64,000 nt of DNA from an uncultured Alphaproteobacteria bacterium (GTDB taxonomy: Bacteria; Pseudomonadota; Alphaproteobacteria; CAAHEQ01; UBA3637): contig CALXXW010000013.1 in assembly GCA_944392785.1 (NCBI GenBank), positions 182,201 through 246,200 on the forward strand. The letters run 5' to 3'. The notes beneath the pieces are model-generated. The model was not told where the DNA came from. It worked only from the letters and a program-made list of their open reading frames with translations, and did no database searches. How positions within the stretch are numbered: the stretch's first letter is position 1; every line of letters starts with the position of its first letter. A program made the translations under genes and the position numbers. Of the stretch, positions 10,514 through 64,000 are shown piece after piece.

Positions 10514-10972
10514 TTATTCCACATTGAATAAGGGTTGATTATATTCTACGGGACTTCCGGATTCAACCAAGACTGCTGAGATTGTCCCGGCTTTATCGGA
10601 CTTAATCGGATTAAATGTCTTCATAGCCTCGACCAAACAGACCGTCTGACCGACCGAGACTTTATCACCGACCTTCACAAAAGCCGGCGAATGAGGGTCT
10701 TTTGAAAGATAAACCACGCCCACCATCGGTGAAACAATATGATTTTCCGGTTTTTTATCCGGCAAAGGAGCATTTCCCGTCACGGCAGGAACAGCCGGCG
10801 TAGATGGCACCATCGGGACAGCCGGGGCCGGAGCTGCGACAATTTCTGTAGCCGCTTTTGGACCCACGACCCGCAGATAGACGCCGTTTGCCTCATACTC
10901 GATTTCAGATAATTTGTTATCGTGCAGTAATTTTGCTAATTCTTCAATAGATTGCTTTTGTTCATTTTCCAT
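10514..10972 (-). CDS. accB: acetyl-CoA carboxylase biotin carboxyl carrier protein
   Basis: 152 aa with a Pro/Ala-rich linker and the biotinylation motif EAMKTFN. Lies 3 nt upstream of accC. Confidence 0.9.
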   Translation of the reverse strand: MENEQKQSIEELAKLLHDNKLSEIEYEANGVYLRVVGPKAATEIVAAPAPAVPMVPSTPAVPAVTGNAPLPDKKPENHIVSPMVGVVYLSKDPHSPAFVKVGDKVSVGQTVCLVEAMKTFNPIKSDKAGTISAVLVESGSPVEYNQPLFNVE

Positions 10973-11075
10973 AATAACACCTCTGATATAAATAAACGTT
11001 ATTCTAACTTTCTACCTTATTTTTCACAAAAATGCAAGGCTTAAAAAAAGAATCTTTTATGACAGAGAATTTTCC

Positions 11076-11441
11076 TTAAACCGTACGGCCATAAATATCT
11101 TCATAACGAATGATATCGCTTTCATCCAGAGTTTGCCCTGTTTGCACTTCGATAAATGTCATGGGGACATCTGTGCGATTGGCGATACGATGTTTTTGCG
11201 CGATATCAATAAAAATATGTGTATTAGCCGGTGCTGACCAGATACGCTCTTCTAAGGTAATTTCTGCCGTTCCCGAAGCAATAATCCAATGTTCCGAGCG
11301 AAAACGATGCGACTGCAGTGACAAGACTCCCTTGGGATGAACAACGATTTTTTTGACAATGTAGGTTTCCCCAACGGCAATAACCTCCCATGTTCCCCAA
11401 GGACGTGTATCTTTATCTCCCACCTGATATGAAATAGCCAT
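11076..11441 (-). CDS. cupin domain protein (mannose-6-phosphate isomerase type II C-terminal-like)
   Basis: 121 aa with the double-stranded beta-helix motifs G..H.H....E and H...N. Confidence 0.6.
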   Translation of the reverse strand: MAISYQVGDKDTRPWGTWEVIAVGETYIVKKIVVHPKGVLSLQSHRFRSEHWIIASGTAEITLEERIWSAPANTHIFIDIAQKHRIANRTDVPMTFIEVQTGQTLDESDIIRYEDIYGRTV

Positions 11442-11474
11442 TTTGTATTTTCTCCTTTCAAATATAATAATCGA

Positions 11475-12014
11475 CTAAAGTCCCAACAAAGCACCGACAA
11501 CGCCGGCACCCAAAATATAAACCATCGGATTGAGTTTGAACATTAAGGAAATACCCAGACATCCCAAAAAAACAAGCACCGCACGCACATCGAAAGAAAC
11601 AACGTTATTTTTTGTAAAAACCAACAGGATAAAAGAGCAAAACACACCTATCATCAATCCGGCAACAGCGGCTTTAACTCCCGCAAAAACAGATATCGTC
11701 ACGGGATGCTCCTTTAATTTCGGCAGGACTTGCGACAGTAAAATAATCATCAAGATAGAAGGGGTAATAATTCCTAACGTTGCCGTTATAGCGGCCGGGA
11801 TTCCGGCTAACACGAACCCCGTATATGTGGCCATATTGACACCAAGAGCACCCGGCGTCATCTCAGCCAAGGCAACGATATTAGCCACATCAGCCGCCTG
11901 AATAACGGGATAAATCGTTGTCAATTCTTGCAAAAAAGGAATGATGGCCATACCACCGCCCATGACAAAAGCTCCCATATAGAAAAAACGCAAAAATAAA
12001 GCCAGATAAATCAT
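11475..12014 (-). CDS. chrA: chromate transporter ChrA-family half protein (SCHR)
   Basis: About 180-aa polytopic membrane protein with CHR-domain motifs (GGGMAIIP, GPGALG-like). The start ATG overlaps the upstream partner's stop as ATGA. Confidence 0.75.
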   Translation of the reverse strand: MIYLALFLRFFYMGAFVMGGGMAIIPFLQELTTIYPVIQAADVANIVALAEMTPGALGVNMATYTGFVLAGIPAAITATLGIITPSILMIILLSQVLPKLKEHPVTISVFAGVKAAVAGLMIGVFCSFILLVFTKNNVVSFDVRAVLVFLGCLGISLMFKLNPMVYILGAGVVGALLGL

Positions 12015-12550
12015 CTTAATTCTCTTTTCAATACAATCAGGTGCAAAGCCCCCAACATACCGGCTCCCACAATCGCCCAAATAGGAGATATCCCCAAAAC
12101 GTATAGCATAAATGTCGCACAAGCAATCAACCCCGTCAATAAGGAGGAAGCCGACGCTTTAATCAGTCGAGCGGCCATGGTCAAAATCAAAACAGCCGCG
12201 CCTATTCGAATACCGATCAAGGCGCTCATCATGAAGGGATGGTCGACCATTTGCTGCACAAAATGAGCCAATAGAATAATAACAACAACTGCCGGCAGTA
12301 TCAATCCCAGGGTTGCGATAACCGCCCCCCACGCTCCGGCACGTTTATACCCGATGAACGCCGTCAAATTAACGGATATAATACCGGGCAAACTTTGGCT
12401 TAAGGCATAATACTCGGACAATTCCTCCGCTTTCAGCCATTTTTTGCGAACGACACACCAGTCATACAAAAAAGCCATAATGGTATATCCGCCCCCAAAA
12501 GCAAACAAACCGATTTTGACACACGTATAAAACAAATCCCAATAAATCAT
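12011..12550 (-). CDS. chrA: chromate transporter ChrA-family half protein (SCHR)
   Basis: 179-aa membrane protein with the CHR motif FGGGYTIMAF. Forms a translationally coupled two-gene short-chain CHR pair. Confidence 0.75.
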   Translation of the reverse strand: MIYWDLFYTCVKIGLFAFGGGYTIMAFLYDWCVVRKKWLKAEELSEYYALSQSLPGIISVNLTAFIGYKRAGAWGAVIATLGLILPAVVVIILLAHFVQQMVDHPFMMSALIGIRIGAAVLILTMAARLIKASASSLLTGLIACATFMLYVLGISPIWAIVGAGMLGALHLIVLKRELR

Positions 12551-12695
12551 GTTTTCAATATAAAGGTTATTTTTAAATTTTTTATTAATGTTTTAAGAAA
12601 GATACCAAAAAAAAGCCTATAAAACCACTTTATACTTGAATTCCGGCAGAATGCGTTTTAAAGTAAGTATGCTGGAATGAAAAAATGAGGCTGAC

Positions 12696-14090
12696 ATGCT
12701 CTATTGGGGATTATTTTTATCTTTTGCCATATCTGTTCTGATTTATGCGTTTTATCCGTTCGGAGATAAGTTAAATGTCGAACGCCATCAAGCCGAAGCT
12801 TTAATCACAGCTTTTATCAATCAACACCAGGCCGCCAAAAATTATCTGGTACATGCGTTGCGGCTGCCGCCTCTCAACAACACCGGCATTGATGAAGGCT
12901 CCGAAGGTGTTGCCCTCTTTCCTCAAGAGCTGGATGATTTTATTCCGCCTTACATGGAAAGTGATCTATATCAGATTCAGGATAATAACGGAGAATTAAG
13001 AACGGCGTTGAATCCCGATCCGCAGAACAGCAACTATGTCGGAGGGGCTTTTTCCTCGGCTTTGATTTGTGTGAAACGCGATGACAGTAGCTTATCGCTC
13101 ATTCCGGATTACCACCTGACAAGTTGCCTAGACGGCTTGGCAGATCACCAATATATCATTACATACGGAGCTCGCCCCGAATGGTGGGACAATCAGACAT
13201 CCATCGAAATGAAAGGAACTTGGCGACATGCTGTTGCACGTATGACACATAATGCACCTAATTGCGGCACATTATTACATGATCCTAAAAACGGACAAAA
13301 AAACGGAGAACCCGTTTATTCTTTGGATAACGGGTATCGTATTTCGGTTGATATTGTCAACCCTCTGGTCACCCAAACACTTAAAAAAGCCGGTGTAAGC
13401 GGTGATTACATACATGACGATCTGATTGATTTATTCTTTTGCATTTCAGCCTATGGCGATCTTTATGTCCCGGGCGCTCTGTATCACTATGATGCAAACA
13501 GTAATACCCGAGAAGGATACAGTGAAACAGCCTCCCGTTGGACAAACTTGGGAACTGTTGGCGGAACATTATCGGCCCGTGTCGATAAACAGGGTTTACA
13601 ACCGACCTCCCGCCTAGATACGGGAATAACACTTAACCCCTATACAAACTATACCTTGACTCTGGTCATGCGCACAACGGATACACAAAACAACAAAACA
13701 TTAACCAGTGGTTTTCCAATCTTAACGACCGACAATCAGACGGATTTATACATTGCCGGACAGACAATTAACATGACCACGGCATCCTCTCGCCGAAACG
13801 ATATGGTGTCCATAACCTATGTCAATGACATAACAACGGGAGAAGGACGTCTCTATGTCAACGGGGAACCGGTTAAAACATTGACGGGAACAGAGCGAAC
13901 GGCTATCAGCGGGACTCTGTTCTTAGAGGCAACGAACACGCGCTTCTTCAACATCAAGTATTATGACACCGTTTTAGAAGAAGACTTTGTCTGGCAGAAT
14001 TATAAATGGGACAAACGCCGCTACAACATTCGCTTTAAAAATAAACGTAAAGTGGAGTATATTCACCGCAATCCCAATGACAAAGCTTAA
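12696..14090 (+). CDS. hypothetical membrane-anchored protein with C-terminal concanavalin-A/LamG-like lectin domain
   Basis: 464 aa. A 22-aa N-terminal hydrophobic segment is followed by an amphipathic, pilin-like helix. The C-terminal beta-rich region carries RLYVNGEPV and GTLFLEA motifs typical of LamG jelly-rolls. Confidence 0.6.
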   Translation: MLYWGLFLSFAISVLIYAFYPFGDKLNVERHQAEALITAFINQHQAAKNYLVHALRLPPLNNTGIDEGSEGVALFPQELDDFIPPYMESDLYQIQDNNGELRTALNPDPQNSNYVGGAFSSALICVKRDDSSLSLIPDYHLTSCLDGLADHQYIITYGARPEWWDNQTSIEMKGTWRHAVARMTHNAPNCGTLLHDPKNGQKNGEPVYSLDNGYRISVDIVNPLVTQTLKKAGVSGDYIHDDLIDLFFCISAYGDLYVPGALYHYDANSNTREGYSETASRWTNLGTVGGTLSARVDKQGLQPTSRLDTGITLNPYTNYTLTLVMRTTDTQNNKTLTSGFPILTTDNQTDLYIAGQTINMTTASSRRNDMVSITYVNDITTGEGRLYVNGEPVKTLTGTERTAISGTLFLEATNTRFFNIKYYDTVLEEDFVWQNYKWDKRRYNIRFKNKRKVEYIHRNPNDKA

Positions 14091-14149
14091 GTTGGGTTGA
14101 AAAAAATAATGACCTATCGTATAATCAAGAAATAAGGAGACGATACAAA

Positions 14150-16111
14150 ATGATAAGAGATACAAATGAGCGCGGAGCAATCATGCTAGAGGTTATTGCC
14201 GTCTTGGCTTTAATTGGCGCAATGGGAACCCTGCTTTTTCGTCAAGTGTTGATGCGCAATCAAGAAGTCGACAATGTTAATATGGCAACCGAAGCACGTA
14301 TCATGAAGGAAAGTACTTTGGCCTATATTCAGGCTGATCGCGCTCTTTTACTTCAAAATACGACCTTAAATCCTCCTGACGGAAACGGGGGTTGTATCGT
14401 TCCCAACCAAGATGACGTTGCCGCCTTTATCCCGGACGGATATGTTGAGCTCAATTCGAGCGATCAATTCGAAGGCATTATAGATTACTACAACATCACG
14501 CTCTGTTCGTATAAGCCAACAGATGAAACGGAACCCGTTATGTATGGAATCATCGTTCCCAAAGCAGAACTCTTACCCTCGGAAATGAACCTAAAACGCG
14601 CTTCACGCGTGGCTGCTCTGATCGGATCGGGTGGTGGTGTTTGGCCCAGTCAAAACGAAGAACTCAGCGGAACGATGGGAGGCTGGCATTTACCGCCGGA
14701 TGGTCTGACTTATCCCGGCACTCCGACGTTTGTCGCTATTACGGGAATGGATATTTTTGTACCGGAACCGGAAAATTTACAGCAGTTAACAACGCTTAAA
14801 TTACAGCTGGATGATGATGCCAAGTTCACAAATTTACATGCCTCTGATTTCTTGTCCGTGGGCGCGGCAACCAATAATTGTTTTCGCAATGTGGGGACCG
14901 TCGATAAGCCCGAGTATGAAATCTTGCGCCCGGGGCAACGCAACAGCGATACAGGAGATATTTGTGATCCTCTCTTTTGGGTGGGAACGGTCGGAGCAAA
15001 CACAACCGAAGACCACTCAATACACGGACATGTCTATGCGAAACAAAACATGTATATCGGGCGAAAAAATCAAGCCAATATCCACGCTATTGCCTTAGAA
15101 AATGAAACGGCTAAAGGCGGACGCATTACCGTTTTTGATGATACAGGACGACAACGTTTGGTTATTGATGGCTCCGGCCGTCTGTTGGGCGGTATAGCCG
15201 CTAACACATCCGATATAGAAGATGACAGAAATGCCACTTTGATTCTAAAGCCCGGTAATTTACAGGATAACCTCAGTAAAGAATCCGCCAGTTTGACATT
15301 GCGCAGTTCAGATGAACAGGATGATTTGGAAATCAAAGACGGTCGCATTGTTGTGGCTCGTCAAACGCCCGATAAACTGGCCGAAAGTGCCACAACATCC
15401 TATCAACTGGATCCGGCCCATACATCGGTTGTCAACGAAATTCGGTTGGCTGCTCGAGGCGGTGCTCGTCTGAGCGATTTATTACCCAATTACATTTCTA
15501 AAACTATGGAAGCCATCACATCCAGCGGAACGGGTGCGTATTCCGAGCACACTCAAGCCGTCCCGACCTGTCCGAAAGGATATACGGCAGCCCTTATGGT
15601 CACACCGACACGTTGGGACACATCTCGTTTATCCGAGATTGATATTTCACATCAACGACGTTTAAATATCGATAATTTCTTTGTCAATGCTCCCGCAGAC
15701 GGAGGAACGGCTTATTTAAAGCGGCAGTCTGATGATAATAATGACCTGATAGATGAAGAAATCATCATCAAAAAAGAAGATAAGCGAGCCGATGACACAA
15801 CGCCCAAAATCAAAATGGAAAAAGCGCGCCTGGCTATTATGATTGATGAGGAAGATCCTCAAAACACGGCCGCTTTGGATACACAAAAGACCGGCTCTTC
15901 TTGGACCATTCGAATGGGTTATGTTGATGATAACAACCAATGGAGCGGCTCGGTGCAAGACACCATATCCGCCGTTGTTCAAACTTTCTGTGTCTATGAT
16001 CCGACCGCACATGAAGGAAATGCCAATCGCATTCCTTGTCCGGAACGTAAGACCGGTAGCCTTTGTCCCGCCGGCTGTCATGAAGATAACGGCATTTGCT
16101 ATAAGGATTAA
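14150..16111 (+). CDS. large type IV pilin-like protein (prepilin-type N-terminal cleavage/methylation motif)
   Basis: 653 aa with an AAGGAGA RBS. The leader MIRDTNERG is followed by AIMLEVIAVLALIGAMGTLLF (G at -1, E at +5). The C-terminus has a Cys-rich disulfide region. Confidence 0.6.
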   Translation: MIRDTNERGAIMLEVIAVLALIGAMGTLLFRQVLMRNQEVDNVNMATEARIMKESTLAYIQADRALLLQNTTLNPPDGNGGCIVPNQDDVAAFIPDGYVELNSSDQFEGIIDYYNITLCSYKPTDETEPVMYGIIVPKAELLPSEMNLKRASRVAALIGSGGGVWPSQNEELSGTMGGWHLPPDGLTYPGTPTFVAITGMDIFVPEPENLQQLTTLKLQLDDDAKFTNLHASDFLSVGAATNNCFRNVGTVDKPEYEILRPGQRNSDTGDICDPLFWVGTVGANTTEDHSIHGHVYAKQNMYIGRKNQANIHAIALENETAKGGRITVFDDTGRQRLVIDGSGRLLGGIAANTSDIEDDRNATLILKPGNLQDNLSKESASLTLRSSDEQDDLEIKDGRIVVARQTPDKLAESATTSYQLDPAHTSVVNEIRLAARGGARLSDLLPNYISKTMEAITSSGTGAYSEHTQAVPTCPKGYTAALMVTPTRWDTSRLSEIDISHQRRLNIDNFFVNAPADGGTAYLKRQSDDNNDLIDEEIIIKKEDKRADDTTPKIKMEKARLAIMIDEEDPQNTAALDTQKTGSSWTIRMGYVDDNNQWSGSVQDTISAVVQTFCVYDPTAHEGNANRIPCPERKTGSLCPAGCHEDNGICYKD

Positions 16112-21736: not shown

Positions 21737-22534
21737 ATGACGATAAAGTCTTTTTTAAAAACCATTGTACCCGTCGGTGTTATGACAGGCTCTGTTTTTC
21801 TGAGTGGTTGTCATCGGGGAGATAAGTCTTACTCGGATGTTGTCAAACCCTCTCAGAAAGCACCATCGACTTTACTTGCCGTTAATACCCAGGCAGAAAT
21901 AGAGGTGGCACGTACCGAGGCTATCTATAAAGCCATCCAAAAGATTGAGGGCGCATTCATTTCTTATTTACCCTTTCCATCGGCAGACGGAAAAATTCGT
22001 GTCGGTTTTGGTGTCCCTATTTCAGAGGAAGCTTTTTTAAAAACACAATTCTATCAACAAACAAAGAAGGGCGCGCTCCCCTATCCTCTGGCAGACAATC
22101 CCATTTTGCTCAATCAATTAAAAACAAAGGGGCAAACGGGAAAAATCCGTTTGCGTGATAAGGAAATTCGCCAACTGACAAAAGCATGGATATCTGAAAC
22201 TTACCCTCAAATCAAACAGACGCTCCCTTGCCTTGATCAACTGCCGATTTCAACGCTTGCCGCAATTATGTTGCTGGAGATGAACAGTGATTCTATACAC
22301 ATACCTGCCTCACCTTTGAGGGACTTGGCGCAAGGGGGGGTGGATTTAGAGAAAAAACTAGAAGTTTTTTTACCGGCTCAACTCTCTCCCAACGACGATG
22401 TGATTCCTCTTCCCTCTTCAAGTCGCTCTCCGAAAGTCTTCGAAAAAGCGCTTGTCACTATTTTGCGGCACAATAAAATACCGCATGTACCCCCTCAATA
22501 CATTCCCAGGCAAGTCCCGGACAATCAACGTTAA
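21737..22534 (+). CDS. lipoprotein with phage-lysozyme (GH24)-like N-terminal motif, paralog 1
   Basis: Signal peptide with lipobox LSGC. EG-x4-Y-x5-DGKIRVGFG and AAIMLLEM resemble T4 lysozyme EG...Y.D.EG..TIGIG and ALINMVFQMG. Confidence 0.5.
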   Translation: MTIKSFLKTIVPVGVMTGSVFLSGCHRGDKSYSDVVKPSQKAPSTLLAVNTQAEIEVARTEAIYKAIQKIEGAFISYLPFPSADGKIRVGFGVPISEEAFLKTQFYQQTKKGALPYPLADNPILLNQLKTKGQTGKIRLRDKEIRQLTKAWISETYPQIKQTLPCLDQLPISTLAAIMLLEMNSDSIHIPASPLRDLAQGGVDLEKKLEVFLPAQLSPNDDVIPLPSSSRSPKVFEKALVTILRHNKIPHVPPQYIPRQVPDNQR

Positions 22535-22546
22535 GGAGGCGAATTT

Positions 22547-23314
22547 ATGTCATTAAAATCTAAAATCAAAACATTTTTACCTATCGGTTTATTGGCTGCA
22601 ACAACGGCCTGGACGGCACAAAACTATCTTCAGACAGACTCTGCTTCACAGAACGAGTCCATAACGGCCCATCAATACCCTCCTGTCATTGAAACGCTTT
22701 ACCAAGAAATCTGTCAAATGCCCGAGGCCTTTATATCAACACATCCTTATGTAGACAGAAACAATGTGTTGCGTGTTGGATTTGGAACTCCCCTGGAAGA
22801 AGAGGAAATCAACGTGACTCATTTTTACCACGAGACTCCCCAAGGCGTACGCCCCTACCCTCAAAAAGAAAATTGGCAACTTGTCGACCATTTATATAAA
22901 AATGGGCAATCGGCCGATATTTTCATTCCCCGAGAGGAAATTGAACTTCTGACCAAACGTTGGCTGCATAAAAACTATGAAAAGCTTCAAAAGATATTAC
23001 CTGAAATAGGACAATTTTCACCGTCTAAACAAGCGGCACTGATGTTGTTGGAGATGACAGAACAATCCATCACGCGCGATGGCACTTTTATCGGCCTTTT
23101 TAAAAAAGCTCTTAAAACGGATCATTACATGGGGTTAGTAGCTTACATACATTTGTCACCTCGCATACATATGGTGCAGGGAAAGGAACAACTGTTGGTC
23201 TCGTCAAAAACCGACTCGTTGGAAACGGCTTTAATTATGCGTCTGACACAGCCGAATCAAGCGCATGCAGCTTTGACAAATCAACTGGCAATCAAGCAAC
23301 AAAACTCTCGATAG
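22547..23314 (+). CDS. secreted protein with phage-lysozyme (GH24)-like motif, paralog 2
   Basis: Tandem paralog sharing the EAFIS...RVGFG.P.EE...FY..T..G..PYP and AALMLLEM blocks with the upstream gene. Confidence 0.5.
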   Translation: MSLKSKIKTFLPIGLLAATTAWTAQNYLQTDSASQNESITAHQYPPVIETLYQEICQMPEAFISTHPYVDRNNVLRVGFGTPLEEEEINVTHFYHETPQGVRPYPQKENWQLVDHLYKNGQSADIFIPREEIELLTKRWLHKNYEKLQKILPEIGQFSPSKQAALMLLEMTEQSITRDGTFIGLFKKALKTDHYMGLVAYIHLSPRIHMVQGKEQLLVSSKTDSLETALIMRLTQPNQAHAALTNQLAIKQQNSR

Positions 23315-42086: not shown

Positions 42087-43455
<1,369 letters not shown>

Positions 43456-43467
<12 letters not shown>

Positions 43468-44562
43468 ACTTTCCCGGCTAAAAATATCCCGGATAATGAT
43501 ATTAACCCACGCATCAACGTTAAATGCAACATGGTGATTGGGGGCGTTTTGAATGAAATCGGATAAACAGGTCTGGTACTGGTGATATACCTCGTCCGGC
43601 ATCTGCTTGAGATAAACATATAAAGCCTCTTCGCTTTCAAAATCCGCTCGATTGATAAAACAGCCCTGAGGTATGTAGTTAGAGACATCCGGAGCCCCTA
43701 AATAAACCGGCACAGCGCCTGTTTCTATACCATCGATGATTTTTTCAGAAACATATCCCGAATGAATGGCATTTTCATATGCCAGAAAAAACTTCGTATG
43801 ACGCATGACATCTGATTTAGAGGCGATATATCCTTTATAAACGGTTTGAAAATTTTTCACCCCTTGGGGAGACAGTTCATTCTTTAATCGCTCCCAACCA
43901 CGACCATAAAGAGCAAAATCCTCCGGATGATTTTCAATCAAATACTTGGCTGTTTGACGACGTGCCTGATAGTTAGATTTATTATTATAGTGATTCGATA
44001 ATACCATTGAAATCAGGGTTTTGTTTGCGTGAGCTGCAGAGTCTGTTTCTGATATTATTTTATCTTGTTTTCGAAGGGGATGAGGTATCGGCAACCAAGC
44101 ATAAATACCCTCCCCTGCAATATTATTTTTTTTAATTAAATCAGTATCATATGTCCAGATACGTTTAAATGTCTTAACCGCCTGCTCTTGCGTAAAAGAG
44201 GGCCAGGAAAAGGGCGTCTCAAGTAAATACAAATATACGGGTTTTCCCGGAGGAAGATTTTTGGGGCATTTAGAAACACAGAAAACCAGATCACTTTGTT
44301 CAGAAGAGTATACTTGCTGTGTTTGCAACAGATAACCATGCCTTAAAAAAGCTTTTTGAAGAGCCGACCAAAAGGGGCTACTAAAAATATCTTGAGCTCC
44401 ATCTCGCCAAGAAAACAATAAAGCTTTTTTGAGCGGCCCCCGAGGCGGTATATCCGACAACAACCGAGCCGTTTCAAGCTCCATGACAAAACAAAAGCCT
44501 AACCATACCCAAAGCAATAGAAGAATACCGCACATAACATGCCATAACGATTTATTTTTCAT
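43456..44562 (-). CDS. glycosyltransferase family 10 (alpha-1,3-fucosyltransferase-like), N-terminal membrane anchor
   Basis: HTKFFLAYENAIHSGYVSEKIIDGIETGAVPVYLG matches the FxLxFENSxxxxYVTEKxxD...P(V/I)YxG signature of GT10 fucosyltransferases. One N-terminal TM helix. Confidence 0.65.
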
Positions 44563-44566
44563 ATAG

Positions 44567-45055
44567 TCATCTTTTTCCGTTGTTATAGTGAGCTAACACT
44601 CTTTGTTTATCCCGGTTCCAATCGCGTTTTTTAATATCTTCACGCTTATCAACCGTATGTTTACCGGTTGCAATGGCTATCCGAACTTTAACAAGTCCTC
44701 TTTGATTAAAGTACATATCTAAAGGAACGACGGTCTTTCCTTTTTTTAGTAAGGCATCGTGAATTTCTTTCAATTCTCTATGCTTTAATAACAGTTGACG
44801 CGGACGTGTGGCGCTTTGCTCAATAAAACCACCTCTGGCATAGGCATATTCCATAATATGAGCGTTTACCAGGTAGAGCCCCCCATCCTTTTCAAAGGAA
44901 GCATAGCTTTCCGCAATAGTTGCATGACCCGCGCGCAATGATTTTACCTCACCACCTGTCAGAACGATTCCCGCTTCATATGTTTCGTTAATAACGTAAT
45001 TAAAACGTGCTTTACGATTGGTGGCAATTGTCCCTGTTGAAATCAATGTCTTCAT
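44567..45055 (-). CDS. smpB: SsrA-binding protein
   Basis: 162 aa. NRKARFNYVI, GGEVKSLRAGHATIAESYA. Confidence 0.92.
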   Translation of the reverse strand: MKTLISTGTIATNRKARFNYVINETYEAGIVLTGGEVKSLRAGHATIAESYASFEKDGGLYLVNAHIMEYAYARGGFIEQSATRPRQLLLKHRELKEIHDALLKKGKTVVPLDMYFNQRGLVKVRIAIATGKHTVDKREDIKKRDWNRDKQRVLAHYNNGKR

Positions 45056-45064
45056 TTTTCTACC

Positions 45065-46714
45065 TTATAGCAAACTTAAAAAAAAGTCAAGATGAACCTT
45101 TAAACATCTTTGCTCCCAAGCAGAAAGTGACGGCCAAATGTCTTGCATAATCCGCTGATGATAAGAACACAGCCATCTCTTTTCATCCCGTGTCAATAAA
45201 GTCGAATCAACCAGTCGCGCATCAAAGGGAATCAATAATAAATTTTGAAATTTTAACCATCCTTTCGACGCCGGAACGGTCAATAACATATTTTCCAAAC
45301 GAATGCCAAAACCGTTTATCTCATCATATACGGCCGGTTCATTTGAAAAAACCATGCCTGCCAACAAAGGCGTTTGACTTTTTTCATGAATAATCGGCGG
45401 CATTTCATGAACGGCCAGGCACATCCCTATTCCATGCCCTGTCGCATGTAAATAATCGACACCATCGGCACGTAAAAAAGCATGAGCACGTGTATCAAGT
45501 CGAGCGGGCTTTTCTCCGACACGCACACAAGCAGAAGCCAAGGCAATATGTCCCTTTAACACTTGCGTATAACGCCGACGCATCAAACACGTCGGCTCTC
45601 CAACGGCAATGGTCCGTGTCATATCGGTCGTACCATTCAAATACTGGCCCCCTGTATCGACCAAAAACAACGGAGCTTGTGACAAATAAGTATTGGCCGC
45701 AACATCTGTATGATAATGCGCCAGCGCTGCATGTTTACCTACGGCCGCTATGGTTTCAAAGCTATCCCCCAAATAAAGGGGATTTTCCGAACGTAAACGA
45801 ATTAAATAAGCGGCAGCCTCTTGTTCGGTTGCGGTTGATTTATGTGTTTCAACCCATGCCAGAAAACGACATACAACCAGACTTTCAAAGAGGCAGGCTT
45901 CTTGAATAGCGGCAATTTCCGTTTTATTTTTAATACTTTTTAAGGCAGAAATAATATCCGGTATATTTTTAAGAGTGGCTCGGTGACGTAAATCCTCTAT
46001 CAGAGCAATCGGTGTCATAGAAAAATCAATCCCCAGTGTCAATCCCGATAAATCCGATGCAGACTCCAAAGACTGATATCGTCCGTCGGAAAATAAAACG
46101 CCGCGTTCATATACAACCGGATAGGCAGGCACACGACGGCTACGACGATTTAACAACCAAGATGTATTTTCGGGATTTGTCATGACAAAGGCATCTATGC
46201 CTTTTTGCCGAATATAAGCCGCAACAGTCATACATTTATCCGAAGCAGAGGCCCCGGCATATTTTTCCGGATAAAGAAAAACATCTTTTTCTTGATTAAA
46301 AGAGGATTTTCCAAAAAGCTCTATTGTCTCTGAATCGCTGATGGGTATCAAAATTGCTCCCGTCTCTTGCAGGCGATCGATTTCAGCCGGCGTATGTGTC
46401 CAGGGTTGATACAAGACTTTTTTCCCGACAGCATGTTCCGAAAGCCACAAAAAAGGTGTCGTCTCGGTCGGCACCTCAAAAACCTCTGCCGTCGTTTCTG
46501 TCTTAGCCTCAATCGTATATCGCGCATCAACGAATAAAATCAGTCGATCCGGCAAAATGATGGCTAATCCTGCCGAACCTTTAAACCCGGATAGAGTTGC
46601 CAATCGACCGGCCTCCGGCGGATAATACTCCCCCAGAAAAGAATCCGTTCGCGTCAACAACATCATATCCGCTTTTTTTGTCTTCAAAAAAGCCTGTAAA
46701 CACTGCCGCATCAT
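45065..46714 (-). CDS. pepP: Xaa-Pro aminopeptidase (M24B, creatinase N-domain)
   Basis: M24 metal ligands HGIGMCLAVHE and NEPAVY. The start is chosen at the ATGATG that overlaps the prmA stop; the track ORF extends to 46810. Confidence 0.75.
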   Translation of the reverse strand: MMRQCLQAFLKTKKADMMLLTRTDSFLGEYYPPEAGRLATLSGFKGSAGLAIILPDRLILFVDARYTIEAKTETTAEVFEVPTETTPFLWLSEHAVGKKVLYQPWTHTPAEIDRLQETGAILIPISDSETIELFGKSSFNQEKDVFLYPEKYAGASASDKCMTVAAYIRQKGIDAFVMTNPENTSWLLNRRSRRVPAYPVVYERGVLFSDGRYQSLESASDLSGLTLGIDFSMTPIALIEDLRHRATLKNIPDIISALKSIKNKTEIAAIQEACLFESLVVCRFLAWVETHKSTATEQEAAAYLIRLRSENPLYLGDSFETIAAVGKHAALAHYHTDVAANTYLSQAPLFLVDTGGQYLNGTTDMTRTIAVGEPTCLMRRRYTQVLKGHIALASACVRVGEKPARLDTRAHAFLRADGVDYLHATGHGIGMCLAVHEMPPIIHEKSQTPLLAGMVFSNEPAVYDEINGFGIRLENMLLTVPASKGWLKFQNLLLIPFDARLVDSTLLTRDEKRWLCSYHQRIMQDIWPSLSAWEQRCLKVHLDFFLSLL

Positions 46715-47580
46715 CAGCTCTCCCGCGCCACCACCAACGTGCTCCATCCTCTGATGCGATATCGACGCACGAATCGAAGCCCTATATCGGTATGAGCCTT
46801 TAATACCCAACGCTCTTGCCGGACCAAAAAGCCGGATAGAATCGCCTCTCCCCCCACCGTTAAATGAGCCTTGAGATCCGATGCCATATTCATCAGAGGT
46901 CGAGCCAAAATATTACAAAAAATCAAATCATATTGTTTTGATACCTCTTGATAACCATCACTTCGCCACACATGCACCAAATTTTCCACACCGTTATCTC
47001 GGGCATTACACAAGGCGACTCGGACAGATTCCTCATCAATATCAACGGCATCTACCGGACGCCGAAACGTTTTGGCATAAGCCATGGCTAAAATACCCGA
47101 ACCACATCCGACATCTAAAACACAAGCCGGTTTTATGTCCAGTTCATTTAACGCCAATAGACATCCATGCGTGGTCTGATGCTCCCCCGTTCCAAAAGCC
47201 GTTGCGGCATCAATTCTGAGAGGAATTTTATCCGCAGGTATTTTGTCATGGATATGAGAGCCATAAATAAAATATCGACCAATTGTCATTGGTTGAAAAC
47301 TTTGATAACTTTCCTGTAGCCAATTTTTATCCGGCATAGCCTGAAGCATATAGTCCGGAACGGGAATATGCGCTAACTGCGCCGCTTTCTGCATAAGAAT
47401 TTTTATCATATCCGCCGCCGGCTGACCTTCAAAAATCATCTGCATTTCCCAGCGACCTTTGTCGGGTCCTGTTTCCAAAAGAACCGTTAAAATAGCACCG
47501 GCAACCTCAGAAAACACGTCTTCAAAAACACTGACAGCTGAGGCCGGTAAAATTATTTTTAAATCGTAATTCAGAGCCAT
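46714..47580 (-). CDS. prmA: ribosomal protein L11 methyltransferase
   Basis: FGTGEHQTTHGCL and the SAM motif VLDVGCGSGILAMAYA. The ATG at 47580 is preceded by GGAGG. Confidence 0.85.
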   Translation of the reverse strand: MALNYDLKIILPASAVSVFEDVFSEVAGAILTVLLETGPDKGRWEMQMIFEGQPAADMIKILMQKAAQLAHIPVPDYMLQAMPDKNWLQESYQSFQPMTIGRYFIYGSHIHDKIPADKIPLRIDAATAFGTGEHQTTHGCLLALNELDIKPACVLDVGCGSGILAMAYAKTFRRPVDAVDIDEESVRVALCNARDNGVENLVHVWRSDGYQEVSKQYDLIFCNILARPLMNMASDLKAHLTVGGEAILSGFLVRQERWVLKAHTDIGLRFVRRYRIRGWSTLVVARES

Positions 47581-47599
47581 TTGTCCTCCTTGTTGTGGA

Positions 47600-47628
47600 A
47601 TTTTAAGGCCGTTTATCCGAAAATGCAA
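47600..47628 (-). promoter_or_regulatory. sigma70 promoter for prmA-pepP
   Basis: On the minus strand, TTGCAT-N17-TAAAAT, then about 10 nt to a GGAGG RBS. Confidence 0.55.
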
Positions 47629-52883: not shown

Positions 52884-53786
52884 TCATTTTTTCTTCCTTT
52901 CAAATGCGTTATTCATACGTCCGTGATTGGCTAAATAAATACCCATTAAGATAATACTGCCTCCAACCAGTTGCAGGCGATGAATCGGTTCATGCAGAAA
53001 CAAAAAAGCTTCCAATGTGCTGAAAATCGGCATCAGGTAATAGACAAGGCTTAGTCGAACACTATCAACTTTTTGAAGAGCAATATTCCACAACAGATAT
53101 GCCAAAACCGAATTGACAATTCCCATATAGAGAATGATTAAAATAACATCCCAATCTATATAGGTCATTTTTAACGGATGTATAAGAGTCTCGTGCACAA
53201 ACATAGGCAGACATGAGAGAGCTCCTATCAGTATCGATAAAGAAAGCATCGTCACTTGACGATATCCCGAATGATGACAAGAAACCAAATAGCTATAAAA
53301 CCCAAAGGAAACCGCCATTAAAATCATCCAAAGATGTCCGCTTTGAAAAGAAAATGATGTTATTTTGCCTTTTAACACTATCATTAAAACACCTAAAATG
53401 GCTAAAGTGATTCCCCTGATTTGTACTTTAGAGACAGGTATATGACCTAAAAAATGAGCAAATAAAATTAAAAAGACAGGGCCTGTCACCGAAATTAAAG
53501 CCATATCAATAGCCGGCAATGTATAAGCAGCATAATACACACAGGTGTTGCTGAATGTGATACCAATCAGAGCCAATGCTAACACCAGACGCCACTGTCG
53601 ACAAAACAACCGACGATGTTTCCAAATTTTTCGGAACGTGAACGGAAGCAGACATATAGCCGCAATCATCCAACGAAAAAAAGAAATCTGCCACGGCATT
53701 AAAACACCAACTAAATGACTGCCAAAAATCACATTAAAGCTCCAAAAAAAGACCGCTAAAATGCCCAAACCATAATATTTCAACAT
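52884..53786 (-). CDS. DMT superfamily transporter (EamA family)
   Basis: Ten predicted TM helices with duplicated EamA halves. The start is chosen at the internal Met with an AGGAAG RBS; the track ORF extends to 54032. Confidence 0.7.
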   Translation of the reverse strand: MLKYYGLGILAVFFWSFNVIFGSHLVGVLMPWQISFFRWMIAAICLLPFTFRKIWKHRRLFCRQWRLVLALALIGITFSNTCVYYAAYTLPAIDMALISVTGPVFLILFAHFLGHIPVSKVQIRGITLAILGVLMIVLKGKITSFSFQSGHLWMILMAVSFGFYSYLVSCHHSGYRQVTMLSLSILIGALSCLPMFVHETLIHPLKMTYIDWDVILIILYMGIVNSVLAYLLWNIALQKVDSVRLSLVYYLMPIFSTLEAFLFLHEPIHRLQLVGGSIILMGIYLANHGRMNNAFERKKK

Positions 53787-53946
53787 TTCTACCACTTCCT
53801 GACGGTAATGATATAGGGCAAAAAAAACGTATTGCATCCCTCTGTAAAAAAAACATGTCAAAAGTCGATGACCCTCTTTACTTCCAGAAGAGATTATCCT
53901 TATACTGTATCTTGTTGATGAACTTTTGATCATAAGAGGAAAGAAA

Positions 53947-55110
53947 ATGAAAAAAATTCTTTTATGTTGTGCCACAGCCCTTCTGTTTTGCTCTTCCGCC
54001 AAGGCAGCCACACAGCCTTCAGAACAACCCATAGCGTCGTTCGCTCAACGTTATCAAAACGTTAAGAATGAACTGGACACGGCGCATGGCCTGAGTTATT
54101 CTTTAGATATATCCGGCATGATGCAACGGGGCGCACCTAATGGTAAGGGGACCTCTTGGCAAACGATAGCTTATGGGACAACGAATTGGGATATGTTTCG
54201 ATCTTCTCGCTGGGGAAGCGGTTCATTTCAAGCGGCCTATACGGCCGTGCGTTATGGCGGTATCAACGGAAATATATTGGGGAATCGTCTGAACATCATC
54301 ACGGGTCTTAATGACTATACCACAGCGTTGAATAATTTTAATCAACTGACATACACACATACGTTTGCCGGACGGGCCGATATATTATCCGTCATGTTAG
54401 GACAATATCCCATTTCAAACTTTGATGGCGGTGATTATAACAGCAATCAACAAATTAATTTTATCAATGAAGCCCTCAGCCAAAATGCCTCCAGCGCTTA
54501 CTCTATAGCCAGCCTGGGTGGGGCATTGACTTTGGCTCCCTCTAACACGGTTAATATCAGCATCGGCGCACAAAACGCTAATAACGTGAGCGGAGAAACA
54601 ATCAGCCTCAATAAGTTTGGAAAAGGACGCTTTACCAGCTTTGTCAACCTACTGTGGACCCCCTCCTTCCATGGACTGCCTGGGCAATATGGCTTTGTTT
54701 TATATGATCAACCCTATGTGCCGGAACAGCCTATGCATACAAAAGGGTGGAGTGTCAATCTGCAACAGGCCATCTCATCAAAAATAACGCTCTTCGCGCG
54801 GGCTAACGGGACCAATCAATCGCTGGAAAGCATTCGCCAATCCTATGTACTGGGAGGTGTTTTAAATAATCCTCTTAACCGTAACGAATTGGATCAAATC
54901 GGATTGGCCGCTGCTTTTAATAAACTCAATCGAAAGGTTAACGGTAATCAGACACGCTCTTGGGAAAATGTGATAGAGGCCTATTGGGCCTGGGGATTCT
55001 CTGACTTTTTAACACTGACACCGGATATACAAGTCTATCTTAATCCCGGAGAGGACCCTCATCAAAAAACCGCCGTTGTGACATCCTTACGAGCAACATT
55101 GATGTTCTAA
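53947..55110 (+). CDS. outer membrane beta-barrel porin, OprB-like (carbohydrate-selective porin family)
   Basis: Signal peptide MKKILLCCATALLFCSSAKA, alternating amphipathic beta-strands, a PDIQVYLNPG motif and a C-terminal Phe. Confidence 0.6.
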   Translation: MKKILLCCATALLFCSSAKAATQPSEQPIASFAQRYQNVKNELDTAHGLSYSLDISGMMQRGAPNGKGTSWQTIAYGTTNWDMFRSSRWGSGSFQAAYTAVRYGGINGNILGNRLNIITGLNDYTTALNNFNQLTYTHTFAGRADILSVMLGQYPISNFDGGDYNSNQQINFINEALSQNASSAYSIASLGGALTLAPSNTVNISIGAQNANNVSGETISLNKFGKGRFTSFVNLLWTPSFHGLPGQYGFVLYDQPYVPEQPMHTKGWSVNLQQAISSKITLFARANGTNQSLESIRQSYVLGGVLNNPLNRNELDQIGLAAAFNKLNRKVNGNQTRSWENVIEAYWAWGFSDFLTLTPDIQVYLNPGEDPHQKTAVVTSLRATLMF

Positions 55111-55243: not shown

Positions 55244-55993
55244 TTAAAGAGGCGTTAAAATAGACGGCGTTATCTGAAAAGCATCAATCAAAGATTGTAT
55301 CTCATTTGTCTGTTTCTTTCCTGTCCAAATAGCACGTATCATAACATTTTTGGGAGAATTTTCAAAATTAACAAACTCTATAACATCTGCGCGGTATCCG
55401 TTATTTTCCAAGACATTGGCACGCAAGGCATCTGTCAACAAGGCTGCAAAACGCTCCTTCAACAAACCATACTTTAAAATAGGATCCAGCATCTTATTTT
55501 GTATTTGTTTTGCCAACTCCTTATGACAACAAGGAACAGATAAAATCAACTTAACTTGATTTTTCATAGCGTATTTCAAAACGATATCAGTTGCCGTATC
55601 ACAGGCATGTAAGCTCACCACAACATCCACACCTTGACCGTAGTTGTAGGCAGCAATATCACCTTCGATAAAATCCATTTCTTGAAATCCCAAACGCTGT
55701 TTAATTTGTGTGCACTTTTGAATAACATCTTTTTTCAGATCGACACCAATCACATGACACTCTTGCTGCCGAATTTCTTTCATAAAATAGTACAACACAA
55801 AAGTCAAATAAGATTTACCGCAACATAAATCCAAAATCGTCCAATGTTTTTTGGGAGGTAATCGATTCATGGCATCATTCAAAATAGCCAGAAAATTATT
55901 AATTTGAATATATTTATCTCTTTGATTTTTAAAAACATTACCATTCCTATCCATAACACCTAGTTCTATTATAGCTTTCCCCTTTTCTGACAA
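55244..55993 (-). CDS. class I SAM-dependent methyltransferase
   Basis: Motif I ILDLCCGKSY and an acidic residue at the end of beta-2 (GVDL). Confidence 0.6.
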   Translation of the reverse strand: MSEKGKAIIELGVMDRNGNVFKNQRDKYIQINNFLAILNDAMNRLPPKKHWTILDLCCGKSYLTFVLYYFMKEIRQQECHVIGVDLKKDVIQKCTQIKQRLGFQEMDFIEGDIAAYNYGQGVDVVVSLHACDTATDIVLKYAMKNQVKLILSVPCCHKELAKQIQNKMLDPILKYGLLKERFAALLTDALRANVLENNGYRADVIEFVNFENSPKNVMIRAIWTGKKQTNEIQSLIDAFQITPSILTPL

Positions 55994-63407: not shown

Positions 63408-64000
63408 TTAGGAGCATTTCTTTGTCCTGGCATCCCATCTCCCATGACACGATTTGCACTTCTCTTGGGTATTTAAACTGCTGGAACTTAAACTTGTCGG
63501 ACATCTATAACAATAGCTTCCATTCATATACCGTGGTGTGCCACTCTTATCACACTTGGCACATTCGGCCTCCGTCGCTTCATAGCCATATGAAGTGCTG
63601 CAGCTGCGGCAAGAGCCATCAGAACTCAAAAGTCCATCAGGACAATATCCTGGTAGAATACAATAACCGTTTCTCATCTCGCGTGGGGTGCTGCTCTTAT
63701 CACACTTGGAACATTCGGCTTCTGTCGCTGAAACGCCAGAATAATAGCTGCAGCTGTAGCACCCGCCAGAATCACTCAAAAATCCATCAGGACAATAGCC
63801 TGGTATAATACAAAACCCGTTTCTCATCTCGCGATTCAAACACTTGGCACATTCGGCCGCGGTCGCTGAAGGGCTAGATGAATCGCTGCAGCCCCAGCAA
63901 GCGCCAGAGGTATCCTGGAACTGATTCGCTCCACAGTTAATTAACCCACAATAGTCACCAAACATTTTGCGGGGAGTGCTACTGGCATCACACTGGGCAC
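63408..64000 (-). CDS. secreted-type cysteine-rich tandem-repeat protein, 5' partial (continues beyond the window end)
   Basis: At least three ~45-aa repeats (ATEAEC-KCDKS-TPREMRNGYC-PGYCPDG-C-SCS). The frame remains open and repeat-like (QCDASSTPRK) up to base 64000. Confidence 0.55.
   Translation of the reverse strand, partial: AQCDASSTPRKMFGDYCGLINCGANQFQDTSGACWGCSDSSSPSATAAECAKCLNREMRNGFCIIPGYCPDGFLSDSGGCYSCSYYSGVSATEAECSKCDKSSTPREMRNGYCILPGYCPDGLLSSDGSCRSCSTSYGYEATEAECAKCDKSGTPRYMNGSYCYRCPTSLSSSSLNTQEKCKSCHGRWDARTKKCS

Follow-up and report, generated by a model that had tools for sequence, protein, structure and literature searches.

We analyzed a 64,000-nucleotide stretch of DNA from an uncultured gut alphaproteobacterium (hereafter, the window), in which an open reading frame (ORF) of 368 amino acids on the minus strand (43456..44562) encodes an intact enzyme of glycosyltransferase family 10 (GT10). 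The explanation that best accounts for our results, and to which we give slightly better than even chances, is that the product is a membrane-tethered, catalytically competent alpha-1,3/4-type GT10 enzyme that would fucosylate a glycan of the bacterial envelope. Within this explanation we infer the donor, the acceptor class, the co-transcription with neighboring genes, the location of the enzyme and its biological role. The gene is old, compositionally native and lineage-specific, and it lies at a variable junction. The layout of the protein resembles that of type II Golgi enzymes, but our results indicate that this layout originated in bacteria or, at the least, spread among them.

Family assignment, catalytic residues and N-terminal segment

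A previous interpretation of the window, made from the letters and without database searches (the sequence-only reading), had proposed a gene similar to GT10 fucosyltransferases, and the Pfam, phmmer and structure matches all agree with it. That reading had tied its case to a GT10 assignment and to a significant motif similarity, and both were found: the protein matches Pfam PF00852 (Glyco_transf_10) at 63.7 bits (E = 2.3e-17), while the gathering score of this family is 23.9. The match covers the C-terminal domain (residues 196-329; 43576..43977, minus strand), and none of the NCBIfam models match the 368-residue protein. When all sequences of the Protein Data Bank (PDB) were searched with phmmer, significant scores were obtained for GT10 enzymes only, namely human FUT9 (E = 2e-12), mango FUT13 (1.5e-11), Helicobacter pylori FucT (1.6e-8) and Arabidopsis thaliana FUT11 (8e-8). 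An AlphaFold2 model based on 21 homologues (pLDDT 87, pTM 0.81) displays a GT-B fold, with a helix at residues 2-36, a short low-confidence linker and two Rossmann-like domains in this order, and its top structural matches are H. pylori FucT and human FUT9, with equal scores. All features of GT10 membership that we examined, from the profile score above threshold to the two signature motifs, the GT-B fold and the key residues, are present. Those homologues that carry a name in their source databases (P0005, P0017) are called 'glycosyltransferase family 10 (domain-containing protein)', and the family assignment of this group of proteins is already known. The GDP-fucose donor and the type of linkage are predicted for the window enzyme by analogy with the family.

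The two signature blocks quoted by the sequence-only reading (FFLAYENAIHSGYVSEKIIDGIETGAVPVYLG, residues 258-289 of the ORF) were recovered within residues 258-291 (FFLAYENAIHSGYVSEKIIDGIETGAVPVYLGAP; 43690..43791, minus strand). With the definitions F-x-[LV]-x-[FY]-E-N-x...Y-[VI]-[ST]-E-K and P-[VI]-Y-x-G, both alpha-1,3-fucosyltransferase motifs are present in this region as FFLAYENAIHSGYVSEKIID and VPVYLGAP, and they align with their counterparts in FUT9, FUT13 and H. pylori FucT. Residue by residue, the N264, Y270, E273 and K274 that it includes pair with N240, Y246, E249 and K250 of H. pylori FucT, and the same motif returns the pairing with N246 and K256 of FUT9. These four residues are invariant in the alignment of the 21 homologues (alignment A1), together with R201, E263, P285, Y287 and G289. 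In H. pylori FucT and FUT9, the residues paired with N264, Y270, E273 and K274 hold GDP-fucose and stabilize the transition state (PMC4202792, PMC12717137).

The putative catalytic base, E115, lies within an LLETP motif (residues 113-117; 44212..44226, minus strand) and is kept in at least 90% of alignment A1. The base has been proposed to be E137 in FUT9 and E95 in H. pylori FucT (PMC12717137, PMC4202792). The profile pairs 'flwllEsp' with 'WIWMNLESP' of FUT9 and, because this stretch of the alignment is weak (5.3 bits), E115 can only be put forward as a candidate equivalent of E137 and E95. R201 probably corresponds to R195 of H. pylori FucT and R202 of FUT9. If the enzyme works as the rest of the family does, E115 would deprotonate the acceptor hydroxyl, which would then attack C1 of GDP-beta-L-fucose in an inverting reaction, with R201 and K274 holding the diphosphate and N264, Y270 and E273 the nucleotide sugar.

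The protein begins with a predicted signal-anchor, recognized by hydropathy and charge analysis (residues 1-27; 44482..44562, minus strand). Four residues, MKNK, form an n-region with a charge of +2 and are followed by 23 uncharged hydrophobic residues (SLWHVMCGILLLLWVWLGFCFVM) and then by ELETARLL; the best 19-mer has a mean Kyte-Doolittle hydropathy of 2.52. Together with the modeled helix at residues 2-36, these values bear out the single N-terminal hydrophobic helix of the sequence-only reading. Since simple sequence rules detected neither an A-x-A site nor a lipobox in this N-terminus, the segment looks like an uncleaved signal-anchor. A short linker, or stem (DIPPRGPL, around residues 37-44; 44431..44454, minus strand), separates the helix from the first beta-strand (KKALLFSW; residues 45-51 in the AlphaFold2 model, with a pLDDT of around 63 at residues 31-40). 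All calls of signals and anchors were made with simple in-house rules and used the starts of relatives as called or their first ATG.

The other end of the protein lacks the C-terminal anchor of the Helicobacter enzymes, as the sequence-only reading had noticed: the fold closes with a helix at 349-361, and the chain stops shortly beyond it, at residue 368, with no further extension. The H. pylori enzymes FutA, FutB and FucTa (PDB 2NZW, 5ZOI) share only around 17-18% identity with the window enzyme, have no N-terminal hydrophobic segment and are instead anchored by C-terminal heptad repeats (DDLRINY-like) and two amphipathic helices (PMC4202792), none of which is found here.

An N-terminal segment of this kind is widespread among the relatives of the window enzyme. 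In all close relatives examined, an n-region with a charge of +1 to +8 precedes 13-33 uncharged hydrophobic residues. When 135 single-domain bacterial GT10 representatives were arranged in a neighbor-joining tree, the window protein fell into a clade of 33 members, 91% of which carry the segment. The other anchored sequences form several small separate groups, and the nearest neighbor of an anchored sequence is also anchored in 48 out of 51 cases. Many relatives have signals that look cleavable. In P0145 the site lies between MKRWLLCFLMMLVPCIALA and DTPE (the end of this signal is also written as ...CIALA before DTPE), in P0150 between ...TIYA and SS, and in P0009 between ...AVSA and AS, while the N-terminus of P0004 contains the lipobox IAAC.

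The taxonomic distribution of these N-termini was derived from 80 GTDB loci. Among the named loci, signal-like N-termini on GT10 proteins occur in metagenome-assembled genomes (MAGs) of gut Alphaproteobacteria, in Chlamydiae (6 of 8 loci; L015, L043, L049, L054, L059 and L061) and in Dependentiae (L036); further cases are unclassified (L031, L050, L053, L068 and L076). Chlamydiae and Dependentiae are lineages that live inside eukaryotic cells. No signal-like N-terminus was found in the GT10 proteins scanned from Helicobacter/Campylobacterales, Verrucomicrobia, Bdellovibrio and Omnitrophota, which, like those of other more distant groups, begin at the first beta-strand, and the one flagged locus out of three in cyanobacteria (L008) looks like a false positive. 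Clade members are lone genes or the ends of transporter operons, and not members of O-antigen clusters. In the literature collection that we searched, we met with no description of bacterial GT10 enzymes that are exported, periplasmic or anchored at the N-terminus, nor of the fusions between GT10, GT11 and GT6 described below. The coherent clade with its signals, its fused forms and the genomic settings of its members appear to be new.

Origin and age of the gene

The sequence-only reading considered the anchor to be of eukaryotic type. A recent acquisition from a eukaryote, with retention of the type II Golgi anchor, would account for the succession of tail, transmembrane helix, stem and catalytic domain, which is the layout of Golgi fucosyltransferases (PMC4202792). 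Such an event would also agree with the phmmer scores of FUT9 and FUT13, which are slightly above that of H. pylori FucT, and with the enrichment of signal-bearing GT10 proteins in lineages that inhabit the interior of eukaryotic cells. Nevertheless, we consider it extremely improbable. Homologue searches over 5.8 billion clustered proteins (1.84 billion representatives) showed that the closest sequences align with the window protein over the full length at 25-50% identity and are bacterial wherever the source is named; the closest genomes are MAGs of uncultured Alphaproteobacteria from animal guts. The alignment with FUT9, instead, spans only around 110 residues of the C-terminal domain, and similarity to the Golgi enzymes (human FUT9, PDB 8D0O; plant FUT11 and FUT13) is confined to the C-terminal motif region. 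Eukaryotic fucosyltransferases are no closer to the window enzyme than Helicobacter FucT is, both in the family-profile scores (74 bits for plant, 74 for human and 70 for Helicobacter) and in the structural scores. The stem has approximately eight residues, compared to tens of residues in the Golgi enzymes, and the conserved disulphides of the latter have no counterpart in the clade, in which no conserved pairs of cysteines were found. We also considered a bias towards even numbers of cysteines as a possible sign of export, but it was uninformative (14 mature domains with even and 15 with odd counts). Owing to the bacterial relatives, the even scores, the short stem and the missing conserved cysteines, nothing ties the anchor to a eukaryotic ancestor, and the N-terminal signal is rather a trait of a whole bacterial clade. 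The window enzyme departs from the Helicobacter type in its anchor and from the Golgi type in its stem, cysteines and relatives.

The location and composition of the gene also speak against a recent arrival. As previously described, the gene lies between obg (42105-43151) and rsfS (43105-43467) on the plus strand and smpB (44567-45055), pepP (45065-46810) and prmA (46714-47628) on the minus strand (all assigned with Pfam and NCBIfam). Among the further neighbors, L21 and L27 are encoded by the plus strand, secF and secD by the minus strand. The GT10 and rsfS genes are convergent, with 3' ends that overlap by 12 nt, and the stop of smpB is 4 nt before the GT10 start. The co-directional block prmA-pepP-smpB (44567..47628, minus strand) probably forms a transcription unit in which GT10 is the last gene. 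On this strand, a terminator-like hairpin that convinces was seen only upstream of prmA (47661-47635; 11 pairs, of which 7 are G-C), and none between the prmA, pepP, smpB and GT10 genes. It is this hairpin, together with the 4-nt spacing, that makes co-transcription of the four genes probable.

According to the sequence-only reading, the GT10 gene had been acquired and inserted into an otherwise conserved neighborhood. However, the same order, smpB-GT10 followed by the convergent rsfS-obg-L27-L21, is detectable in the contig of a relative whose GT10 protein (P0002) is 50% identical to that of the window. Synonymous sites between the window and the genome of this relative are saturated, with protein identities of 83% for SmpB, 87% for Obg, 68% for RsfS and 95% for L27. 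The shared order and the saturation of synonymous sites indicate that the gene was in place before a deep split. When the composition of 47 window ORFs was compared, the GT10 gene proved to be typical of the window and similar to smpB, with a GC content of 0.400 (z = -1.36), a GC3 of 0.36 (z = -1.43) and a codon-choice likelihood of z = +0.74. Since the gene is no outlier, recent horizontal transfer as judged by composition was rejected. Within this lineage of uncultured gut Alphaproteobacteria, the GT10 gene would thus have been inherited vertically.

The more distant relatives examined never have smpB and rsfS as neighbors. In genomes whose SmpB is around 72-73% identical, the prmA-pepP-smpB block is kept and the downstream genes differ: smpB is followed by a GT6 gene and an ankyrin-repeat gene (L083 and L084), by three unnamed genes (L085 and L086) or by queA (L087 and L088), and in none of these loci by rsfS. 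Similarly, neither rsfS nor smpB was found near GT10 in any of the 80 GTDB loci with GT10 relatives. We therefore rejected the insertion into a conserved rsfS-smpB pair, because the arrangement is lineage-specific and common to one diverged relative. What appeared to be a conserved neighborhood is a pair of blocks joined only in this lineage, and gene content varies where the smpB block ends. A tmRNA-associated island beside smpB was considered as well and rejected, as there is no tmRNA gene in the window.

Elsewhere in the window, the lowest GC contents belong to a Methyltransf_32-type methyltransferase (55244-55993, minus strand; GC 0.348, z = -3.2) and to an EamA transporter (52884-54032, minus strand; GC 0.378, z = -2.2). 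For these two ORFs, a foreign origin is more likely than for the GT10 gene. ORFs of 185-653 amino acids with no Pfam family are located at 12696-14090, 14150-16111, 21737-22534 and 22547-23314 on the plus strand and at 63408-63965 on the minus strand, and the least typical codon choice was measured for 21737-22534 (z = -2.4) and 63408-63965 (z = -2.2). A GcrA gene is also present in the window and supports its assignment to an alphaproteobacterium.

Predicted product and functional state of the gene

One indication of the product comes from members of the same clade in which GT10 is part of a larger polypeptide. P0145 (886 amino acids; L094:1369-4029), P0147 (903 amino acids) and the protein encoded at L004:10001-12730 are single polypeptides composed of a signal, GT10, GT11 and GT6, with all three domains above the Pfam thresholds. 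GT11 is of the alpha-1,2-fucosyltransferase type and GT6 of the blood-group A/B transferase type, and together the three domains would constitute a complete synthase of ABH/Lewis determinants in gut Alphaproteobacteria. These triple fusions connect the GT10 clade with the formation of H, A/B and Lewis structures. Other multidomain proteins are P0151, with two GT2 domains followed by GT10, and P0148, with two GT10 domains. Bacterial GT6 and GT11 enzymes of blood-group synthesis are known, such as BoGT6a of Bacteroides ovatus, WbnI and WbwK of Escherichia coli O86 and FutC of H. pylori. They act in the same ABH/Lewis pathway as the domains that are fused to GT10 in this clade, but they have other folds and belong to other families, are cytoplasmic and encoded in O-antigen clusters, and have neither signals nor fusions.

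The locus itself provides a second indication. In L083 (5341-7244) and L084 (6503-7411), where SmpB is 73% identical, the GT6 gene directly after smpB occupies the position of the window GT10. The encoded GT6 shares 51% identity with the GT6 domain of P0145 and begins with MKK and a hydrophobic stretch, and its gene precedes the ankyrin-repeat gene mentioned above. The GT6 ORF of L084 is shortened by a stop codon (302 compared to 360 amino acids). In many other, unrelated bacteria, GT10 adjoins GT11.

Taken together, these indications make Lewis or histo-blood-group-like fucosylation the likeliest outcome of the reaction, and the acceptor is probably a glycoconjugate of the envelope. The uncleaved signal-anchor would tether the enzyme to the inner membrane, and the stem of around eight residues would keep the active site at the membrane surface, near lipid-linked or other envelope glycans. 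Addition of fucose to an envelope glycoconjugate would then create a Lewis or histo-blood-group-like epitope. The sequence-only reading had suggested an acquired surface-glycan modification, possibly fucosylation that mimics the host. The fusions and the GT6 at the locus lend indirect support to such a modification, which is plausible, whereas a recent acquisition is not supported.

GT10 also includes the protein O-fucosyltransferases FUT10 and FUT11 (POFUT3/4), which act on folded EMI domains (PMC11949838, PMC12717137), and the window enzyme may modify proteins in a similar way and not be a glycan enzyme of the Lewis type. Its status as a lone glycosyltransferase with no glycan-assembly genes nearby, and the occurrence of most clade members amid housekeeping genes, would agree with this possibility. 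The fusions with GT11 and GT6, which are enzymes of Gal-terminated glycans, point instead to oligosaccharide acceptors, and the best matches are FUT9, FUT13 and H. pylori FucT, in a comparison set without structures of FUT10 and FUT11. Overall, protein O-fucosylation seems to us unlikely.

Several observations weigh against the fucosylation of an envelope glycan by a functional enzyme. The 64-kb window contains no gene of the GDP-fucose pathway, no other glycosyltransferase, including GT11 and GT6, and no O-antigen or capsule cluster (a GDP_Man_Dehyd match on FabG was below threshold), and thus offers no local clue to the acceptor. The donor, linkage and acceptor predicted for the clade derive from family likeness and, to our knowledge, GDP-fucose has no source outside cells, including in the gut. 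The evolution of the GT10 gene is 4-5 times faster than that of its neighbors (dN of 0.47 and 0.09-0.25, respectively). Moreover, one out of five conspecific sequences has seven instead of eight A in a run on the coding strand (44126..44133, minus strand; nucleotides 430-437 of the gene), with a frameshift that splits the gene into ORFs of 168 and 183 amino acids (L090:10494-11599). The frameshifted assembly implies that the gene is dispensable at least sometimes.

This difference in length could be due to phase variation, to a real pseudogene or to an assembly error. Runs of at least eight nucleotides are common (28 in the window), so that the difference is weak evidence for phase variation, and the poly-C phase variation of H. 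pylori FucT has no parallel here except for this single ambiguous case. The split gene, the fast evolution and the lack of partner genes nearby may alternatively be signs of a decaying or functionless gene that is carried along downstream of smpB. This is very unlikely, because both the window and three further conspecific assemblies have an uninterrupted gene, with differences at five synonymous and seven non-synonymous positions (pN/pS = 0.38), all catalytic residues are kept, and the 50%-identical orthologue is still intact after long divergence.

Side of the membrane and implications

Whether the tethered enzyme faces the cytoplasm or the periplasm depends on the orientation of its anchor. 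From the positive-inside rule and from the signal-peptide character of many relatives, an N-in/C-out orientation with the catalytic domain outside the cytoplasm is predicted, and we estimate that the chances of this being correct are roughly even. The topology of the Golgi enzymes, if adopted in a bacterium, would also put the enzyme in the periplasm. GDP-fucose, however, is made in the cytoplasm, and we know of no transporter that delivers it to the periplasm. According to a review, transmembrane domains are lacking in those bacterial enzymes by which O-antigen units are assembled (PMC4202792).

A periplasmic domain would be compatible with an enzyme whose N-terminus serves as a genuine Sec signal or signal-anchor, that is exported and directed to, or dependent on, a host, and that obtains GDP-fucose from the eukaryotic host cell. 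It may act in the periplasm, at the cell surface or after release, and fucosylate surface or host glycans. We treat this as the main alternative, which is possible but not probable. The positively charged n-region in all clade representatives examined, the textbook signal-peptidase sites or lipoboxes of P0145, P0150, P0009 and P0004, and the distribution of signal-like N-termini, which are found in gut Alphaproteobacteria, Chlamydiae and Dependentiae and not in the free-living groups scanned, all argue for it. So do some gene associations, including the ankyrin-repeat gene after GT6. In four loci, GT10 is the overlapping last gene of an operon with ABC_tran, a membrane protein and ABC2_membrane_6 (PF06182), and the GT10 proteins are 37-60% identical. 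Operon-linked GT10 genes of this type lie at L001:7522-11053, L006:2899-6398, L095:5533-9050, L096:4957-8474 and L094:569-4029, and the linkage persists between GT10 proteins with no more than 37-40% identity. An arylsulfotransferase gene (PF05935) is located one or two genes downstream of GT10 in L001, L006 and L094, two of which (L094 and L006) have a clear signal-like N-terminus, and in L094 it is followed by a gene for an OprB porin.

Two of these contigs also carry CRISPR-Cas genes. In L096, from a gut alphaproteobacterial MAG, a type II system with cas9, cas1 and cas2 (10903-15581) lies 2.4 kb downstream of GT10, and in the related contig L095 cas9 is reduced to a remnant of 541 amino acids (11350-12975).

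Precedents for an exported host-mimicry enzyme come from other families. Sialyltransferases of Pasteurella and Photobacterium have N-terminal anchors or lipoprotein signals. The neisserial Lst, a LOS alpha-2,3-sialyltransferase, is an outer-membrane enzyme that uses CMP-NANA (CMP-sialic acid) of the host, and thus a Leloir-type host-mimicry glycosyltransferase that works beyond the cytoplasm (PMC4324315, PMC4668040). It is unrelated to the family of the window enzyme, its donor is CMP-sialic acid, and its location was determined experimentally, while that of GT10 is predicted from sequence alone. Against export stand the lack of a known extracellular supply of GDP-fucose in the gut, the silence of the literature searched on exported bacterial GT10 enzymes, the absence of conserved cysteine pairs and of any bias to even cysteine counts, and the lack of a cleavage site in the window protein. 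In addition, simple topology rules have failed before with membrane-associated glycan enzymes, as in the case of the re-entrant helix of PglC.

An exported enzyme of this host-linked kind would imply that the bacterium lives in close physical proximity to eukaryotic cells. Even more tentatively, and with considerable doubt, we suggest that GT10, GT6 and GT10-GT11-GT6 proteins of gut Alphaproteobacteria, Chlamydiae and Dependentiae may form a so far undescribed, Sec-targeted class of Leloir-type enzymes that build ABH/Lewis structures outside the cytoplasm, with donors taken from the nucleotide sugars of host cells or delivered by the linked ABC-2 transporter. If so, the lifestyle of these gut Alphaproteobacteria would bring them into intimate contact with eukaryotic cells and might even be intracellular.

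The characterized bacterial Lewis fucosyltransferases are cytoplasmic and anchored at the C-terminus, whereas in the clade described here an enzyme that needs GDP-fucose is predicted to face the side of the membrane where this donor is not expected. Should the predicted export prove wrong, the clade would be a further failure of single-helix topology rules among glycan enzymes; a correct prediction would instead indicate scavenging of host nucleotide sugars or a new route of donor supply. The GT10-GT11-GT6 fusions may serve as useful one-polypeptide catalysts for ABH/Lewis glycans. Mimicry of blood-group and Lewis structures by these little-known gut Alphaproteobacteria could matter for the recognition between host and microbe, as with natural anti-A/B antibodies, lectins and norovirus-like binding.

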